Assembly: GCA_048940645.1 (NCBI GenBank)
Contig: JBHLOI010000014.1
Location: forward strand, 1 to 64,000
Direction of reading: 5' to 3'
DNA length: 64,000 bases
Origin: Promethearchaeota archaeon
GTDB lineage: Archaea; Asgardarchaeota; Lokiarchaeia; Sigyniarchaeales; SOKP01
The notes beneath the pieces are model-generated. The model was not told where the DNA came from, ran no database searches, and saw nothing but the letters and a program-made list of their open reading frames with translations. The position numbers were made by a program, and so were the translations under genes. Below, in pieces: positions 2,957 through 45,439 of this stretch (positions are counted from its first letter, which is position 1; every line of letters starts with the position of its first letter).

Positions 2957-3952
2957 ATGGATTTAATTGAATTGATACCTAATTGGAAGAATAAAAAAGT
3001 CTTAGTAATAGGAGAAGCATTAATAGATACATACATTTTTGGACAAGCTGATAGAATTTCTCCCGATGCTCCGATCCCTAATGTAAAAATTGAACGTCAT
3101 GAGACTTATTTGGGAGCTATTGGGTTAGTGTTACAATTTATAAAGTCATTAGGTGGAAATCCTGAGCTATGTACAATTGTAGGCGATGATTATGAAGGTG
3201 ATTTCTTTGTCAAAAAAATCGAAGCTTTGAACTTTGATTCCTCGAATATTATTATTGATAATGATACTAACACGCCACAGATTACTCGAATAAAAGCGAT
3301 GAACCAACATTTATTAAGACTAGAAACAGATTATACAACAGAGATTTCACCCAGCGCCATTAACGATTTTTTTGGCATAATTCAAACGGGTTATGAAGAT
3401 ATTGATTCAATTATAATTTTGGATTATGGTGCTGGTGGCCTTTTTCACGATGATTTTATTTCGAGATTATTGAGTACGTTAAAAGAAGTATATAAAGAGA
3501 CTCCTATATTAGCGCGTCCGAATGTATCAAATTACTACCTCTATGAAGATATTGACTTAATGAAGATTAATTTACAAAAAGCATTAACCAATTTTTCAAT
3601 AGATTGTTGGACTGAAACGAGTATTATTATTGCTGGGAAGCGTATTATCAATTCATCCAAATGTAAGAATTTACTTCTAAACTATTTGGAAACTGATTCT
3701 TTTCTTTTTTATAAAGACCAAGAAAAGGTTGAAAAAATAAAACCGATTTTAAACCAACCTGTTAGAAGCCATGTGGCAGTTGGTAGTTCTATTATAGCAG
3801 TTTTAGGCCTAACTTATGCATCTAATATTCCTGTCTTAGATGGGGCAAAAATTGCTATGGCCGCAGCAGCACTTTCAGCAACTTTTCCACCGGTAGAATT
3901 TTTTAATTCAGAAACTCTCAAGAATTATATTTCAACAAATTTTGTAGACTAA
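2957..3952 (+). CDS. HldE/RfaE kinase-domain homologue (PfkB fold) with degenerate catalytic motif
   Basis: VLVIGE..IDTY.FG..DRISPDAPIP, NQHLLRLE and ILDYG match HldE domain I; the GAGD motif is replaced by AVGS. Confidence 0.75.
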   Translation: MDLIELIPNWKNKKVLVIGEALIDTYIFGQADRISPDAPIPNVKIERHETYLGAIGLVLQFIKSLGGNPELCTIVGDDYEGDFFVKKIEALNFDSSNIIIDNDTNTPQITRIKAMNQHLLRLETDYTTEISPSAINDFFGIIQTGYEDIDSIIILDYGAGGLFHDDFISRLLSTLKEVYKETPILARPNVSNYYLYEDIDLMKINLQKALTNFSIDCWTETSIIIAGKRIINSSKCKNLLLNYLETDSFLFYKDQEKVEKIKPILNQPVRSHVAVGSSIIAVLGLTYASNIPVLDGAKIAMAAAALSATFPPVEFFNSETLKNYISTNFVD

Positions 3953-3964
3953 TTATAAAAAATT

Positions 3965-38823: not shown

Positions 38824-39249
38824 TTACTTAGCTTTACTTTTTAGGTCTTCTTCTTTTTTAGCTACTGCTGGTTTTTTTAATTTTACACTATAGATTTGAT
38901 CTATTAGCATTCGATCCCCGCAATCATTACATGTTTCTACTTCTCTAAAAACATAATCTCCGTGTTGGTAATTTCTTACTTTCGTGATCCCACACACATT
39001 ACATTTTAAAATGGACAGAGTTTGCATAATTGGTTCAGATTGACGTTTTTTAATTTGAATTAATGTGGAACCTAAGCATATAAATGAAAAACCTATAAAC
39101 CAGTTAGTGACTTGATCGGTACCACTGGCTAAATAAATAAAAAGTGCTCCAACTATGATTAGCAGAACTAAGAGTAAGTTTTTTAGCACACTTTTTAATG
39201 AGACCTTCTTCTTTAAAATCTCCTCATCATCATCCTCATCGTCGATCAT
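38824..39249 (-). CDS. Two-TM membrane protein with C-terminal zinc ribbon
   Basis: Two hydrophobic helices, CNVC...GDYVF...CNDC; divergent from DUF1512. Confidence 0.75.
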   Translation of the reverse strand: MIDDEDDDEEILKKKVSLKSVLKNLLLVLLIIVGALFIYLASGTDQVTNWFIGFSFICLGSTLIQIKKRQSEPIMQTLSILKCNVCGITKVRNYQHGDYVFREVETCNDCGDRMLIDQIYSVKLKKPAVAKKEEDLKSKAK

Positions 39250-39393: not shown

Positions 39394-40548
39394 ATGATCT
39401 TAAATTTAATGCAATTTAGCCAAACTCAAGTAGATCCACTTAGTTTAATAATCCAAGTTTTGTGGTTCGTATTAATATTCATTTCGATGTTTTACGGAAC
39501 TAAAATTCAAGCATGGAGATCACAGAAAGAAATTGAATCTGGATTAACAAAACTTAAGGAATGGGATGATGAATGTAAACAAATTTTATTATCGAATTTT
39601 AAAAAGTATGCTGATAAGAAAGAGACTGATAAAGATCTAATGATTAAACTCGAAGATTTTTTAACTTTTATTGCAATTACTCCTGTTTCAATTGATCCTT
39701 TTGGCATTATTCCAAAGTTGGATCATGTAATTGATGTTAGAGATGATAGATTCAGAGAAGAAGTAGCTTTAATGGCTCCAAGTGTAATAAAAGGTTCTGC
39801 AGATGCTCAAAATTTGGAAAATTTACTTGAAGCAGTAATGGCTGTAGATTTTATATATAGACTTGTAAAACATTACTTAATTTTAGGTAAGAAATCAAAA
39901 TCCTATATTTTACTAATGCAAATCTCGATGCAAATGAGCTTAATTACTTCAATGGCAAAATCATATTATCACGCTACTAAAGCATTTTCAGAAGGTAGCC
40001 CTATTGGAGACTCCCTTGGTCCTTTGGTTGCTGGAAATTTTGTAAGAAACGTTTCTGATAATGGTGAAGTTGATGCTCGTGAAATTGCAAAAGATACTAT
40101 ACTCCAAGAAGTAAACTTTGAAGATAGAATTGTTTATGTTGTTCGTGCAAAGGGTCCAGGTGGAACTGTTGGAAAACCAGGTACTGCGATTAAGAAGTTA
40201 ATTGAAGAACATGGAGATGATATCTCTAGAATTATAATGATTGATGCAGGCCTGAAACTTTCAAGTGATAAGCGTGGTTCCATTGCTGTAGGAGTTGGAG
40301 CAGCTATTGGTGGAATTGGTGTAGAGAAATTTTATATTGAAGAATCTTCGACAAAAAAAGAAATTCCAATTGATGCATTGATATGTAGAGAGTCTTTAGA
40401 AGATGCTATCACTACTATGCGTAGAAGTATTACCCAAAGTGTACCAAATATTGTAGAAAAGATTAAAATGGGGATACGTAAACGTACAGAAAAAGGATCA
40501 AAAATAATAGTAGCTGGTATTGGAAATACAATCGGGATTGGCGTTTAA
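39394..40548 (+). CDS. DUF1512-family archaeal protein
   Basis: PVSIDPFGI, PIGDSLGP, AKGPGGTVG.PG, IDAGLK, GAAIGGIG.EK..IE, AGIGNTIGI. Confidence 0.8.
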   Translation: MILNLMQFSQTQVDPLSLIIQVLWFVLIFISMFYGTKIQAWRSQKEIESGLTKLKEWDDECKQILLSNFKKYADKKETDKDLMIKLEDFLTFIAITPVSIDPFGIIPKLDHVIDVRDDRFREEVALMAPSVIKGSADAQNLENLLEAVMAVDFIYRLVKHYLILGKKSKSYILLMQISMQMSLITSMAKSYYHATKAFSEGSPIGDSLGPLVAGNFVRNVSDNGEVDAREIAKDTILQEVNFEDRIVYVVRAKGPGGTVGKPGTAIKKLIEEHGDDISRIIMIDAGLKLSSDKRGSIAVGVGAAIGGIGVEKFYIEESSTKKEIPIDALICRESLEDAITTMRRSITQSVPNIVEKIKMGIRKRTEKGSKIIVAGIGNTIGIGV

Positions 40549-40684: not shown

Positions 40685-41152
40685 GTGAAAATCATGAAAG
40701 TATTTTCAGAAGAATGGACTCAAGCATATATGAAAGCCATAAATGCTAATCCTAATTTTAAAGCAGCAGCATCATGGTGGGAAGGGGATTTTATTTTTAT
40801 TGTTGAACCTGTTGGAAATTTAGATCATGAAATTAAATTTTTTATCGGGTTTTATAAGGGTGATTGTACAGGAACAAAAGTTTTAGCACCTGGTGAGGAA
40901 TATGATATTCTTCCCCCTAATTCACCATCTAGACCTTTAAAGGAAGGTGAAAAGGTGGGAGCTGAGTTTGTTTTTTCAGGTCCATATGATAATTGGGTAA
41001 AGGTGTTAAAGAAAAAACTCGATCCTATCCAAGGGTTAATGGCAGGAAAGTTTAAACTAGTTGGAAATATGGCTAAAGTCATGCGAGCCACAAAAGCAGC
41101 ACAAGAAATGGTTGTAGCGACCACTATGGTTGAAGGAGCCGAGTTTTATTAA
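40685..41152 (+). CDS. SCP2 sterol/lipid-binding domain protein, copy 1
   Basis: FSEEW..AY..AIN, W.GDF, FVFSGPYDNW, LDPIQGLMAGKFKLVG. Likely start is ATG 40694. Confidence 0.85.
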   Translation: MKIMKVFSEEWTQAYMKAINANPNFKAAASWWEGDFIFIVEPVGNLDHEIKFFIGFYKGDCTGTKVLAPGEEYDILPPNSPSRPLKEGEKVGAEFVFSGPYDNWVKVLKKKLDPIQGLMAGKFKLVGNMAKVMRATKAAQEMVVATTMVEGAEFY

Positions 41153-41443: not shown

Positions 41444-41911
41444 GTGAAAATTATGAAAGTTTTTTCAGAAGAATGGGCTGAGGCTTATGTAAAAGCACTA
41501 AACAGTAATCCTAATTATAAAGCTGCAGCATCTTGGTGGGAAGGGGATTTTATTTTTATTGTTGAGCCGAGTGGAAATTTAGATCATGAAATTAAAATGT
41601 TTATTGGATTATACAAGGGTGATTGTACGGGAGCAAAAACTTTAGCAACTGGTGAGGAATTTGATATTCTCCCTCCTAACTCACCACCTAGACCTTTAAA
41701 AGAAGGTGAAAAAGTGGGTGCTGAGTTTGTTTTTTCAGGTCCTTATGATAACTGGGTAAAAGTCTTAAAGAAAGAACTCGATCCTATCCAAGGGTTAATG
41801 GCAGGGAAGTTTAAATTAGTAGGAAACATGGCGAAAGTAATGCGCGCTACTAAAGCAGCTCAAGAAATGGTCGTTGCTACCACTATGGTTGAGGGTACAG
41901 AGTTTTATTAA
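41444..41911 (+). CDS. SCP2 sterol/lipid-binding domain protein, copy 2
   Basis: Same length and near-identical to copy 1. Likely start is ATG 41453. Confidence 0.85.
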   Translation: MKIMKVFSEEWAEAYVKALNSNPNYKAAASWWEGDFIFIVEPSGNLDHEIKMFIGLYKGDCTGAKTLATGEEFDILPPNSPPRPLKEGEKVGAEFVFSGPYDNWVKVLKKELDPIQGLMAGKFKLVGNMAKVMRATKAAQEMVVATTMVEGTEFY

Positions 41912-42159: not shown

Positions 42160-43173
42160 ATGGGCTTATCCACTAAGGAATATTTTGTGAAGGATTTAGT
42201 AATAGATGACGAATATGACATAATTGCTGCAAAAGCAACAGTTGAAGATGCTGCGAAAAAGATGAAACAATTAGGCATTCCAGATTTAGTTGTTGTTGAA
42301 GAAGGAACAGAGCAAGTAATTGGGGTAATAGGAGATTTCGATATTGTCCAAAATACTATTGCAGAAGGATTAGACCCAAAAAGTACTAATGTTACTTCAG
42401 CAATGTATAAAATATCTCCTGTCTCATTGGATACTCCTGTAAAAGAAGCATTTACTAGGATGCGTGATTTACAAGTCAATGTTGTACCGGTCGTAGAAAA
42501 TAATAAATTAATTGGTGTATGCTCAATCCAAGATTGTTGGAGTTATATTCCTGATCAAATAGTAGATGAAATTGGATTGATACCAGTGGCAAATACAAGA
42601 GTTGCCGAATTTTGGTTTGCTAGTGTTTCAGCTGTTATAGCTTTAATTTTAGGAATAATTTTGCCATTAGCGGGAGTTTTTGGATTTTTCATTGCGGATC
42701 AAGCAGATGTAATGTCGTTATTGGGTTTAGCTGATGTTCGTGGAGGATCAATGGTTTTTTATCTGTTTGAAGCACACGGCTATGATTTTTTTGTATCAAT
42801 TATTAATATAGCCGCTAGGAGTGGAGTGATCTGGATAGTAATAGTTGTATTTAGTATATTACTCCTGATTATTGGATTTTTAGGATTGTTTGCCATAATT
42901 TATACGAGTTTTGCCGATACAAGAAATATAAAGACGGGAAATATTGTCCGAATCTTAATACCATCCCTAGTAATCGTTTTTATAGTGCTTGAATGGATAT
43001 TATTCGCTATTGGTTTTGCAACAGCAAGTAGTCCAGTTTCATTTGCCTTAGATCCAGTTGGATTGACTATGTCTATCGTTTCAATGATATTAATCATAAT
43101 TGCAATCAATCGTGATTACATTTTTCGGCAAAAAAAATCCATAGATTCTGAGTTAAGAGAGGTGAAATCATAG
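42160..43173 (+). CDS. CBS-pair protein with C-terminal multi-TM domain
   Basis: TVEDAAKKM..LVVVE...IGVI.DFDI and TPVKEAFTRM..VPVVEN.KLIGV; about four TM helices follow. Confidence 0.85.
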   Translation: MGLSTKEYFVKDLVIDDEYDIIAAKATVEDAAKKMKQLGIPDLVVVEEGTEQVIGVIGDFDIVQNTIAEGLDPKSTNVTSAMYKISPVSLDTPVKEAFTRMRDLQVNVVPVVENNKLIGVCSIQDCWSYIPDQIVDEIGLIPVANTRVAEFWFASVSAVIALILGIILPLAGVFGFFIADQADVMSLLGLADVRGGSMVFYLFEAHGYDFFVSIINIAARSGVIWIVIVVFSILLLIIGFLGLFAIIYTSFADTRNIKTGNIVRILIPSLVIVFIVLEWILFAIGFATASSPVSFALDPVGLTMSIVSMILIIIAINRDYIFRQKKSIDSELREVKS

Positions 43174-43175
43174 GC

Positions 43176-44642
43176 ATGCCTCGTGGTGGAGGTTTTCGAG
43201 GAGGTGGTTTTCGAGGGGGGGGATTTCGAGGAGGTGGTTTTCGAGGAGGTCCAGCAGGATTTCGAATGGGCGGAATTAGACCAGGTGGTGCTCCATTTGG
43301 TAGAACTGGAGCGTCAAGAATAGTTTCACGATCTCCTCGTGGACCATATAGACATACATATTATTATCCACATCGTAGATATTGGTATGGATACAGACCT
43401 TGGTATTGGAGATGGTGGTATTCCCCATGGTGGGCAGGACATTGGTATAGACCATGGTATTATAGCCCAGTATATATTGGAGGAGGAATTTTCTTTCTTA
43501 TTATACTTGGTTTAATAATATTACCTCTGTTTCAAATAGGTTTTTGGTTTCCTTTTTCTAATGCGGATTCATCTGGTACTGTTGCTTATCGTTCTACCGA
43601 AGTTATTGGTTTTAATGAATATTGGTATGAATATGAGTATATAGAGGGAGGTAATGATATCACATATTCAGTTCAATCATCAATAAGCCCCATAAGTTTT
43701 GCAATATGGGATCAACCTTTTGAGAATTTACCTTTTAAACCTCCTATATATGGAAATGATACATTCTTAATATCATTACCAAGTAATTGGTATGAGTATT
43801 ATTTTATATTTTTAAAACCAGGATCTTCAATATTTTACAATTTTACTGTAACTTCAGGCAATCCAATCGACTTTTTTATTACTGATGTATCAAACCTTGT
43901 TAAATGGAATGATAATGATCCATCCGCCTCTTTCTATAACCAAAGCGATAATACATTGGGAGAAATCGGAACTTTTTCAAATATATTCAGTGCACAAGAC
44001 TATTATCTTGTATGGTATAATGACAATCCTTCTAGTGCTTCTGTAGATATTGAAATTAACTATACAGCAGTTAATGTTATTGATCTCTCAGCAGCAGACT
44101 TATCTCACGAAAATGTATTTTCTGCTTCAGGCACTTTCCCTGTTCCTTCCGACCGATCAGGTAATTGGTATTTCTTTGTATATTTTGATCCATTATTTTC
44201 ATTAGAAGAGTCAACAACTATTACTTTTGATGTTACCTATGAGACAGGGGTTACTTATGTTGAAAGATGGCAAAGTATTCAATGGATATTAATTATTATT
44301 CTGGTTGTTGTTATCATTGTGATAATCGCAGCTTTTGCCGCAAGAAAAGGACAAAAAGCTGTGAGTTTAAAAGCAAAAAAGGAACAAAAAACAGAACCCT
44401 CCAAGGCTGTAAAGGAAGAAGTTAAAGGTGAGACAAAAAAATGTCCTCGATGTAATTTCGATATTAAAACTGATGCGAATTTTTGTCCCAAATGTGGAGG
44501 CAAAATAGAAGGAAGAAGTATTGGGTCATCTGAAATTACAACGCCGGTTGAAGCTAAGACATGTTCTTTTTGCGGTAGTAAACTTTCTGAAACTTCAAAT
44601 TTTTGTCCATGGTGCGGTACTCCAAAACTGAAGAATGATTGA
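43176..44642 (+). CDS. Two-TM protein: RGG/aromatic low-complexity N-terminus, beta-sandwich ectodomain, two C-terminal double zinc ribbons
   Basis: (RGGGF)4, YW/R-rich tract, TM, ectodomain with four N-x-S/T sequons, TM, CPRC/CPKC and CSFC/CPWC. Confidence 0.85.
   Translation: MPRGGGFRGGGFRGGGFRGGGFRGGPAGFRMGGIRPGGAPFGRTGASRIVSRSPRGPYRHTYYYPHRRYWYGYRPWYWRWWYSPWWAGHWYRPWYYSPVYIGGGIFFLIILGLIILPLFQIGFWFPFSNADSSGTVAYRSTEVIGFNEYWYEYEYIEGGNDITYSVQSSISPISFAIWDQPFENLPFKPPIYGNDTFLISLPSNWYEYYFIFLKPGSSIFYNFTVTSGNPIDFFITDVSNLVKWNDNDPSASFYNQSDNTLGEIGTFSNIFSAQDYYLVWYNDNPSSASVDIEINYTAVNVIDLSAADLSHENVFSASGTFPVPSDRSGNWYFFVYFDPLFSLEESTTITFDVTYETGVTYVERWQSIQWILIIILVVVIIVIIAAFAARKGQKAVSLKAKKEQKTEPSKAVKEEVKGETKKCPRCNFDIKTDANFCPKCGGKIEGRSIGSSEITTPVEAKTCSFCGSKLSETSNFCPWCGTPKLKND
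43182..43250 (+). repeat. 15-bp coding tandem repeat encoding RGGGF x4 + RGG
   Basis: CGW-GGD-GGD-GGW-TTT units with synonymous variation. Confidence 0.9.
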
Positions 44643-44749
44643 TCAGGTATTAAAAAAAAAAAATAATAATTTCCTTTTTTTTTCTAATATTATTTTTACT
44701 CTAAATATGGATTAACTTATTAGAATAGTAAAATTCTAAACTCATAAAA

Positions 44750-45439
44750 ATGATGAAAGAATTTTTTTCTTTATATTTAAGAGGTAAAGCTGAAAAAATC
44801 ATATCAAATATTTTTCTAATCTTAATTATTATCTTAGGGTTATTTTTATTAGATATTATTCCTCCTCTTGAGTGGTATATTTATGTATCTTTTTCAGGTT
44901 TGTTGTTATTATTCTTATTTTTATTAATTTTGCGAAGAATCAAAAGAACATGCATTGCACTAGATACAAAATTAAGGCGTGAGAACTTTAAAGACAAGAT
45001 GGGTTTAGAACCGTTAAAGAAAAATAATTTAACAAAAGCCTATAAAAGATGGTTAATCAAGGATGCTGCAAATAAAAAATTAGATATACAACTTAAACCA
45101 AAAGTTAGTTCTTCGGGAATTCCTTACTGTTTTTATTGTTGTTATTGTATTATCCCTTTAATCTTAATCCTTGGATTAATAACTATTATTTATACTCCAG
45201 AAATCGTCCAAAGGATAATTATCCCTGGGATATTCCTTGGATTATTCATAATTTATTTCTTAATACAAAAAAGAATAAATTATTACACATATAAGGAGAT
45301 GGATTCAGCAATAAAAAGAGTTTTATTTGAGGAAGAAACAGGATATAAACCCTTAATAAAAGGTAGATTCTCTTTCAAATATAAAGCATGGCTCATACAA
45401 AATGAAAAAAAAGATGAAACATCTAACATAATTGCTTGA
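44750..45439 (+). CDS. Four-TM protein with internal two-fold repeat
   Basis: Two halves, each TM-TM followed by F...(M/T)G..PL......YK.WLI; Cys cluster YCFYCCYC. Confidence 0.7.
   Translation: MMKEFFSLYLRGKAEKIISNIFLILIIILGLFLLDIIPPLEWYIYVSFSGLLLLFLFLLILRRIKRTCIALDTKLRRENFKDKMGLEPLKKNNLTKAYKRWLIKDAANKKLDIQLKPKVSSSGIPYCFYCCYCIIPLILILGLITIIYTPEIVQRIIIPGIFLGLFIIYFLIQKRINYYTYKEMDSAIKRVLFEEETGYKPLIKGRFSFKYKAWLIQNEKKDETSNIIA

Follow-up and report, generated by a model that had tools for sequence, protein, structure and literature searches.

Several families of proteins described so far share one part or another with the gene pair considered here, which lies at positions 42160–44642 of a 64,000-nucleotide stretch from a Promethearchaeota archaeon (contig JBHLOI010000014.1, positions 1 to 64,000 of the forward strand; hereafter, the window). 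The two genes, for which the working names P1 and P2 are used, encode a CBS-domain membrane protein (P1, upstream) and a membrane protein with an RGG tail and zinc ribbons (P2, downstream). In Arabidopsis, APD1-4 are transmembrane RING E3 ligases that are needed for pollen mitosis II and whose substrates are not known (PMC13210498, PMC6118397). In archaea, membrane proteins with GOLD domains and zinc ribbons have been linked by gene context to systems that resemble the ESCRT complexes of endosomal sorting, in the ‘Meth_adaptin’ loci of Makarova et al. 2024, which is the closest published context for the pair (PMC10936438). The p24 proteins are type I membrane proteins composed of a signal peptide, the GOLD domain, a coiled coil, one transmembrane (TM) helix, and a short coat-binding tail. 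Eukaryotic GOLD domains, in general, bind lipid, glycan, or protein cargo. As for the tail of P2, the origin of the glycine/arginine-rich (GAR) domain has been placed at the archaea-to-eukaryote transition (PMC7290794).

The ectodomain of P2 is homologous to the extracytoplasmic domain of APD1-4 and has a GOLD-fold core, and P1 and P2 form a conserved, tightly spaced unit whose translation is probably coupled. The P1 stop codon (TAG, 43171–43173) is followed by the two bases ‘gc’ and then by the P2 ATG at 43176, and a GAGGTGA sequence stands inside the upstream gene, so that coordinates and sequence agree with the 2-base-pair (bp) junction given in a preliminary description of this DNA. Archaeal transcription termination occurs at oligo-T, and the oligo-T tract downstream of P2 likely terminates the two-gene unit. 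At about 29% G+C, the window is AT-rich; it belongs to a genome of 3.83 Mb in 126 contigs that is 89.6% complete. The features of the pair are the following:

42160–43173, + strand: P1 gene, an open reading frame (ORF) of 337 amino acids (aa), with an N-terminal CBS pair followed by a C-terminal four-helix membrane domain
42181–42552, + strand: CBS (Bateman) pair of P1, residues 8–131, predicted cytoplasmic
42595–43107, + strand: membrane domain of P1, four TM helices and an outer loop of about 50 residues with an LFEARG motif
43159–43165, + strand: Shine-Dalgarno-like GAGGTGA for P2, within the last P1 codons, read from the sequence
43176–44642, + strand: P2 gene, an ORF of 488 aa, a two-TM hairpin with both tails predicted cytoplasmic
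43176–43265, + strand: RGG/GAR-like tract, P2 residues 1–30, made of MPRGGG, three FRGGG units, and FRGG
43266–43475, + strand: motifs PFGRTG and GPYRH (residues 31–60), then an Arg/Tyr/Trp/Pro juxtamembrane tract (residues 61–100)
43476–43550, + strand: TM1 of P2, about residues 101–125 (AlphaFold2 (AF2) helix 98–124, and hydropathy)
43554–44261, + strand: P2 ectodomain, residues 127–362 (236 aa), a pair of beta-sandwiches
43746–44069, + strand: GOLD-fold core of P2, residues 191–298, from VIA-align
44262–44339, + strand: TM2 of P2, about residues 363–388 (AF2 helix 361–403, and hydropathy)
44340–44435, + strand: Lys-rich cytoplasmic linker of P2, residues 389–420, net charge +5
44436–44624, + strand: two Cys4 zinc ribbons of P2 that make one DZR, CxxC-x10-CxxC, 22 residues, CxxC-x10-CxxC
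44670–44683, + strand: oligo-T tract, TTTCC then nine T, about 30 nucleotides past the P2 stop, read from the sequence

The AF2 model of P2, built on a 50-sequence alignment and giving the C-terminal ribbons at moderate confidence, contains an all-beta region (residues 135–356) with block means of the predicted local distance difference test (pLDDT) mostly at or above 90 and with helices on both flanks, which bears out the layout of TM, ectodomain, and TM proposed in the preliminary description. From strand order and match ranges, the region consists of an outer sandwich, formed by residues of about 135–178 together with 309–356, into which a GOLD-like domain is inserted. In VIA-align comparisons this core matches p24beta1 (5azw_B) with Z 14.3 and a root-mean-square deviation (rmsd) of 1.4 over 89 of 93 residues at 21% identity, followed by TMED1 (Z 13.2), p24gamma2 (13.0), SEC14L2/SPF (12.2), and p24delta1 (11.7); below these five GOLD domains there is a tier of generic jelly rolls that begins at Z 10.5, and the top Foldseek matches are the same GOLD domains. 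Birnavirus VP2 also appears among the Foldseek matches, with an rmsd of 15–16 Å, and was rejected as an artefact of the two-jelly-roll layout.

At the level of sequence, the ectodomain of P2 has no match in Pfam or NCBIfam, and its profile retrieves nothing meaningful from the PDB sequences. APD1-4_N (PF16040) scores 12.4–13.6 bits at residues 198–227, below its gathering score of 27 bits, and APD1-4_M (PF16041) scores 10 bits (E 2.5; 43980–44066), below its gathering score of 25 bits; the two matches are colinear within the GOLD core, and as PF16040, PF16041, and PF01105 give noise-level scores on the own genome and likewise in control genomes, they are colinear hints only. PF01105 (EMP24_GP25L) has no match on P2. 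Across the family, APD1-4_N matches 28 of 50 P2 members at E ≤1, with a best value of 3.1e-6. The homology was established with an ectodomain profile of 29 sequences (A3) that was scored against 1.84 billion representative proteins and gave 189 matches at E ≤1e-3. Among its 94 matches outside the family, APD1-4_N is found in 27 (best 1.2e-48), APD1-4_M in 25 (best 2.4e-40), DZR in 14, and EMP24_GP25L in 13, of which two exceed the cut-off (best E 8.8e-11). At least nine of the retrieved proteins pass the Pfam APD cut-offs, with library-wide E values from 4e-8 to 2e-4, and two of those that pass have a named source, an APD1-4 protein of Brassica cretica (P0305, E 4.4e-8) and a protein of Chattonella subsalsa (P0352, E 1.9e-5). 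Moreover, hhalign aligned the Asgard ectodomain with eight APD proteins over 186 columns (probability 98.4%, E 8.9e-15), in a span (A3 columns 21–225) that exceeds the GOLD core. The own genome holds no paralogue of the P2 ectodomain.

P2 and APD1-4 thus share, at the profile level, a homologous extracytoplasmic domain (PF16040 and PF16041 in APD1-4) and the succession of TM, domain, TM, and zinc-binding cytoplasmic tail, the TM helices that flank the APD domain being placed by hydropathy. However, P2 carries two sequential Cys4 ribbons and no RING, and is therefore not an APD E3 ligase, whereas APD proteins lack an RGG or aromatic N-terminal tail. Moreover, we know of no partner gene of the CBS-4TM type for APD. 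With p24/TMED, SEC14L2/SPF, and ACBD3, P2 shares the GOLD fold at residues 191–298 and, with p24 in particular, a membrane-anchored GOLD domain that faces away from the cytoplasm. Nevertheless, P2 is not a p24 protein: unlike the type I p24 proteins, it is a two-TM hairpin, in which the GOLD core is nested in a second sandwich and the cytoplasmic tails measure about 100 aa. As in the proteins of the Meth_adaptin loci, a TM linker connects the GOLD domain with other parts and zinc ribbons occur in the same systems, and many distant relatives of the P2 ectodomain are indeed composed of a signal peptide, GOLD, TM, and zinc ribbon; in contrast to those loci, none of the loci read has an ESCRT, adaptin, or SPFH gene close to the pair, and the GOLD proteins of Meth_adaptin type lack a CBS-4TM partner.

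The order P1 then P2, on the same strand and immediately adjacent, is found in all 29 loci read, so that a lack of conservation of the pair, which would have spoken against the preliminary description, is not seen. In the 27 loci measured, which represent four families from two classes of the phylum, the spacing ranges from −4 to +5 bp; a single apparent spacing of −17 bp derives from an over-long ORF call and was set aside as a start artefact. Families f2 and f3, which belong to the same order, are represented among the loci read, as is f26 of another class of the phylum, where P1 is about 40% and P2 about 43% identical. In these distant loci (f2, f3, f26) none of the window neighbours DUF1512, SCP2, HAD, and PPDK is retained. 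Of the 24 other genomes of the genus, 21 have a full-length P2 orthologue, as do most genomes of a second family in this order. In a large protein collection, P2 has 306 homologues, named merely ‘zinc ribbon domain-containing protein’ or similar, and P1 has 462, all named merely ‘CBS domain-containing protein’; their sources are metagenome-assembled genomes (MAGs) labelled Promethearchaeota or Lokiarchaeota.

A survey of 301 genomes of the phylum with a P2 profile gave matches in families f1 (52 of 68), f2 (6 of 7), f26 (18 of 21), and f9 (1 of 28), and none in the other families sampled (e.g., 0/76, 0/19, and 0/11). The lone positive genome of f9, G304, is 8% contaminated and holds an f1-like P2 copy. 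When the P1 membrane domain was searched alone, all 13 P2-negative genomes of the family that could be checked lacked it, some of them being 92–100% complete; the absence patterns of P1 and P2 coincide across genomes and, therefore, the two genes are gained, kept, and lost together. As separate observations, the f1-type P2 copies of G304 (f9) and G239 (f26), with E of about 1e-240 and 1e-223, respectively, are at odds with the families of these genomes, and G239 additionally holds its own f26-type copy; the misplaced copies probably reflect mixed bins. In one f3 locus (L021, G026:C103, 3156–3963), two separate ORFs (3156–3659 and 3664–3963) make up the P1 orthologue and the P2 orthologue contains an X/N run, and a frameshift, a sequencing error, or masked bases could explain the locus.

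P2 starts with MPRGGGFRGGGFRGGGFRGGGFRGG, followed by a Tyr/Trp/Arg/Pro tract, which is the arrangement of four RGGGF units and an Arg/Tyr/Trp tract that had been read earlier. RGG/GAR boxes consist of at least three close RGG units in a disordered, Gly/Arg-rich context; P2 has five units in residues 3–25, four of them as RGGGF, and residues 1–73 are predicted to be disordered (AF2 pLDDT 31–37, and 31–35 in the RGG tract). No part of P2 is more conserved than this predicted-disordered tail. Mean column identity among 50 homologues is 0.85 for residues 1–30, 0.75 for 31–60, and 0.80 for 61–100, and falls to 0.54 for the GOLD core and to 0.50 for the linker that follows TM2, which is the least conserved region. 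Invariant residues are P40, F41, G42, R43, T44, and G45, as well as G56, P57, Y58, and H60, in the N-terminal tail, and P75, W76, Y77, G88, R92, W94, and P98 near TM1 (a PWY motif and G88-x3-R92-x-W94). The RGG tract is present in 29 of the 29 orthologues examined, with about four to six RGG units, while the motifs PFGRTG, GPYxH, PWY, and G88-x3-R92-x-W94 are fixed. Two outcomes that would have undone the preliminary description, absence of the tract in orthologues and its cleavage as a signal, are thus contradicted, the latter by a P2 N-terminus with no signal-like hydrophobic stretch.

Scanned in all six frames, the complete 3.83 Mb assembly has no run of three or more RGG units other than the P2 tract. 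The tract has 57% G+C vs 33% in the rest of the P2 gene and uses mixed codons for Gly (GGT, GGA, GGG, and GGC) and Arg (CGA, CGT, and AGA); on account of the mixed codons and the G+C contrast, the tract is kept at the protein level and not as a DNA repeat. A looser scan adds only one unrelated open frame of 126 codons on the minus strand of contig C92, at about 54582, rich in Gly, Arg, Trp, and Met (GMGLGRGWGRGMGWGRGRGRGYWGRWRGG). The P2 tract resembles the GAR/RGG regions of eukaryotic fibrillarin, GAR1, nucleolin, and FUS in its tandem RGG(G)F units, its disorder, its strongly cationic character, and the nearby aromatic residues. Unlike them, it is tethered to the membrane and is followed by fixed motifs and a TM helix, and the fibrillarin of the archaeon itself lacks a GAR domain: this fibrillarin, an open frame of 250 codons of which 221 match the Pfam fibrillarin model, was flagged by neither RGG scan.

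The N-terminal tail varies in the wider family. Relatives from metagenomes with two TM helices and the full ectodomain (398–466 aa) have C-terminal ribbons and Asn/Ser/Lys-rich N-terminal tails without RGG, and they keep the aromatic juxtamembrane element (PWY..WGxPFK) with the G-x3-K/R spacing of P2. Shorter relatives are composed of GOLD, TM, and zinc ribbon, one of them in a Thorarchaeota MAG, and several of those with two TM helices start with RGG-like tails (MPVGSRGGGGGFRGGGF and MRRGGGSRGGGFRGGGG) or with Gly/His tails (MPVGGGHHGGGHHGGG). Gly/His-repeat tails of the latter kind are found in the GOLD-like metagenome proteins P0304, P0306, P0307, P0346, P0349, P0366, and P0368, all of them with two TM helices except P0307, for which one is predicted. 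In P0242 (875 aa, metagenome), a zinc ribbon at the N-terminus and TPR repeats spanning about 500 aa take the place of the RGG part, and YRPWYRRWWY is retained before TM1, as is the ectodomain, whereas another relative has the ectodomain fused to beta-propeller-like repeats. A single-TM relative in another Asgard family (L046) has no CBS neighbour. For the distant two-TM relatives of the P0282 group, no related loci were found in genome or metagenome contigs, and a search of the genomes of the phylum returned known orthologues only. We read the aromatic/basic juxtamembrane element as an old core and the N-terminal extension as an exchangeable cytoplasmic interaction module, and the RGG form of the latter as fixed, and under strong constraint, in the clade in which the CBS-4TM partner occurs too.

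Both P2 tails are predicted to be cytoplasmic (N-in/C-in), as anticipated in the preliminary description. This topology is suggested by a net charge of +17 before TM1, by the Lys-rich stretch after TM2, and by the concentration of N-x-S/T sequons in the middle domain, with four in the P2 ectodomain and none in the tails, and with 1.26 vs 0.19 per 100 aa in the middle domain and the tails of 29 orthologues. P2 has eight cysteines, all within residues 423–480 and none outside the ribbons, and all eight are invariant in 50 sequences. Pfam DZR (PF12773) matches residues 423–481 with 40.1 bits, above its cut-off of 27.3, and Zn_Ribbon_1 with 38.7 bits; the Pfam scan of P2 returned zinc-ribbon models only and nothing else at E ≤0.01. 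Hence the ‘two double zinc ribbons’ of the preliminary description need correction, as eight cysteines make two Cys4 ribbons, that is, one DZR domain.

P1 is composed of a CBS pair and about four TM helices, as had been described, according to the Pfam CBS matches (two stretches, E 5e-14), the CBS fold, and the AF2 model. In VIA-align comparisons the CBS pair matches 1xkf_A with Z 16.2 and an rmsd of 2.6 over 120 residues, all 50 matches listed are CBS-pair domains or proteins that contain one, and Foldseek agrees. The second CBS motif is GVCSIQD, which fits the ribose-binding pattern G-h-h-S/T-x-x-D. In the AF2 model, the helices span residues 146–171, 224–254, 261–287, and 299–316, with block-mean pLDDT mostly of 80–96. 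In the membrane domain, conservation falls on P, G, and W residues, on an E/Q/N-W pair of TM3, and, at the cytoplasmic end, on an RDY.F motif, and the outer hairpin with LFEARG is conserved as well, the loop being lost in one orthologue. P1 resembles MgtE, CNNM/CorB/CorC, ClC, and CBS-containing site-2 proteases in having a cytoplasmic CBS pair on a helical membrane domain (CBS Z 11–14). However, the P1 membrane domain appears unrelated to theirs by sequence, the CBS pair of P1 is N-terminal to four helices only, and P1 has an obligatory two-TM partner gene. Queries of the ESM Atlas with the P1 membrane domain and the P2 tail gave uninformative scores below 0.85 to unnamed clusters. The CBS pair of P1 also matches, with Z 12.4, PDB entry 9zni (chain 6), a CBS-pair protein on the Methanosarcina 70S ribosome (SriC/SriD complex); the match recalls that CBS pairs of archaea are able to dock on ribosomes and is not evidence about P1.

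The reading that we prefer, to which we give a probability of roughly 0.55, is that P1 and P2 are the subunits of an obligate two-subunit membrane receptor or adaptor that would combine a ligand of the ectodomain, an adenosyl ligand sensed by the CBS pair, and a cationic platform on the inner side of the membrane. The two proteins would form one physical complex specific to Loki-type Asgard archaea, in which the four-helix bundle of P1 may pack against the two helices of P2. P2 would be a hairpin receptor or adaptor whose double beta-sandwich, with its GOLD fold and its likeness to APD1-4, faces outward and binds a putative surface or extracellular ligand. On the other side, the cationic tail with its RGG, PFGRTG, and Arg/Trp/Tyr parts would lie at or on the inner membrane face and might constitute, together with the double zinc ribbon, a multivalent platform for partners that are polyanionic or proteins, for example RNA, anionic lipid head groups, or acidic proteins. 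Through the cytoplasmic CBS pair of P1, the state of the complex could depend on an adenosyl ligand, for example adenosine mono- or triphosphate (AMP or ATP) or S-adenosylmethionine. A general interaction platform is favoured for the tail because relatives swap RGG for His-rich, TPR, or plain tails. Some points weigh against the receptor or adaptor: three genomes of the same genus that are 92–99% complete lack both genes, so that the module is dispensable, and a shared fold is no proof of a shared function. Likewise, no P1–P2 fusion was found, a search for P1 forms of more than 590 aa having returned none, which is weak evidence, and the P1 membrane domain (residues 140–330) has no match in Pfam, NCBIfam, or PDB sequences, the Foldseek and VIA-align lists for P1 being filled by CBS pairs so that the membrane fold was barely probed.

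The same parts could be put to other uses. In the preliminary description, the RGG/aromatic tail was proposed, by analogy with eukaryotic RGG proteins, to tether RNA or to nucleate a membrane condensate in response to what the ectodomain binds and to the energy state sensed by the CBS pair, and this may be regarded as possible, if doubtful. The four RGGGF units, the aromatic ‘stickers’, the charge of +17, and the predicted disorder are consistent with it, as are the exceptional conservation of the tail and its standing as the only RGG run in the genome, and zinc ribbons, such as those in the other tail of P2, often bind nucleic acids. Eukaryotic GAR domains do bind RNA, but they bind phosphoinositides and phosphatidic acid too (PMC7290794), and the P2 tract stands right at the membrane. 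Moreover, relatives in the same family have Gly/His, Asn/Ser/Lys-rich, or TPR sequences in the position of RGG, and the invariant PFGRTG and GPYRH resemble specific docking motifs and not generic low complexity. A more ambitious version, in which P2 would be the Asgard form of a eukaryotic APD/GOLD endomembrane receptor family with a GAR/RGG tail, whose tail and ribbons might organise an RNA or condensate layer at the inner membrane face in response to the ectodomain ligand and the adenylate state, is quite improbable.

A CBS-gated channel or transporter of the MgtE, CNNM/CorC, or ClC kind, with six TM helices as the pathway and the ectodomain as a lid or selectivity module, is unlikely. Membrane proteins with CBS domains, where their function is known, are mostly channels or transporters, the P1 CBS pair matches those of MgtE and CorB/CorC with Z 11.3–14.1, and a near-conserved E, Q, or N precedes the invariant Trp in TM3 of P1; nevertheless, the Pfam models of MgtE, DUF21, and ClC have no match, MgtE is matched through the CBS pair only (full-length superposition, rmsd 19 Å), the P1 membrane helices have few conserved polar residues, and a channel leaves no role for the large conserved cytoplasmic tails and the zinc ribbons. 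It is very unlikely, in turn, that P2 is a membrane ligase or adaptor for ubiquitin or ubiquitin-like proteins, as an archaeal counterpart of APD1-4 with ribbons in place of the RING. The homologous ectodomain and the common order of TM, domain, TM, and zinc-binding tail would fit such a function, and weak matches to RING models do occur in the family (zf-C3HC4_3 in 27 of 50 at E ≤1, best 0.0079; Prok-RING_1, best E 0.002), yet all are far below the cut-offs, and on the P2 of the window they reach only E 0.11–0.53, short of what a RING assignment takes. A cross-braced RING has 2–3 residues between its second and third ligand pairs, whereas the CxxC-x10-CxxC ribbons of P2 are sequential and 22 residues apart, and no E1, E2, or ubiquitin-like gene adjoins the pair in any locus read.

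A search of the literature returned no description of the Asgard pair, of its link to APD1-4 and GOLD, or of an RGG tail in Asgard archaea; thus, the earlier statement that the architecture had not been described holds for the literature searched. What is new with respect to the preliminary description is the GOLD-fold, APD1-4-like identity of the ectodomain with named eukaryotic matches, together with the phyletic co-loss of P1 and P2, the finding that no region of P2 is better conserved than its tail, and the variation of this tail among relatives. Asgard archaea are a hunting ground for the forerunners of eukaryotic membrane-trafficking parts, and the pair offers a possible new link, since a widely conserved Loki-type pair carries a domain common to APD1-4 and the fold of the p24 cargo receptors. 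Moreover, a tail of the RGG/GAR type, treated in the literature as a eukaryotic invention (PMC7290794), stands here on an archaeal membrane protein and, being the best conserved part of that protein, does something specific. If an Asgard APD/GOLD receptor with an RNA-organising tail existed, both the APD/GOLD cargo-receptor scaffold and the multivalent tails of GAR type would predate eukaryogenesis. The pair is small and expressible, and could give a handle on the ligands of archaeal GOLD/APD domains, on the partners of pre-eukaryotic RGG tails, and on the role of the CBS-4TM protein. Even if its function were mundane, an archaeal branch would be added to the APD/GOLD family, which could guide work on the plant proteins.

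As for the surroundings of the pair in the window, a gene for a 229-aa TM protein at 44750–45439, downstream of P2, was excluded from the system, its adjacency not being conserved. Directly upstream of P1 there are two tandem, near-identical genes of 155 aa each of the SCP2 family (lipid-transfer fold), at 40685–41152 and 41444–41911 on the + strand, and the SCP2-family gene is present as a single copy at the corresponding position in two other genomes of the genus. Further upstream, a gene on the − strand (38824–39249) encodes a 141-aa protein with an acidic N-terminus, a TM helix, and a CxxC...CxxC pattern, and is divergent to a DUF1512 gene (39394–40548, + strand), an arrangement that is kept in two other genomes of the genus.

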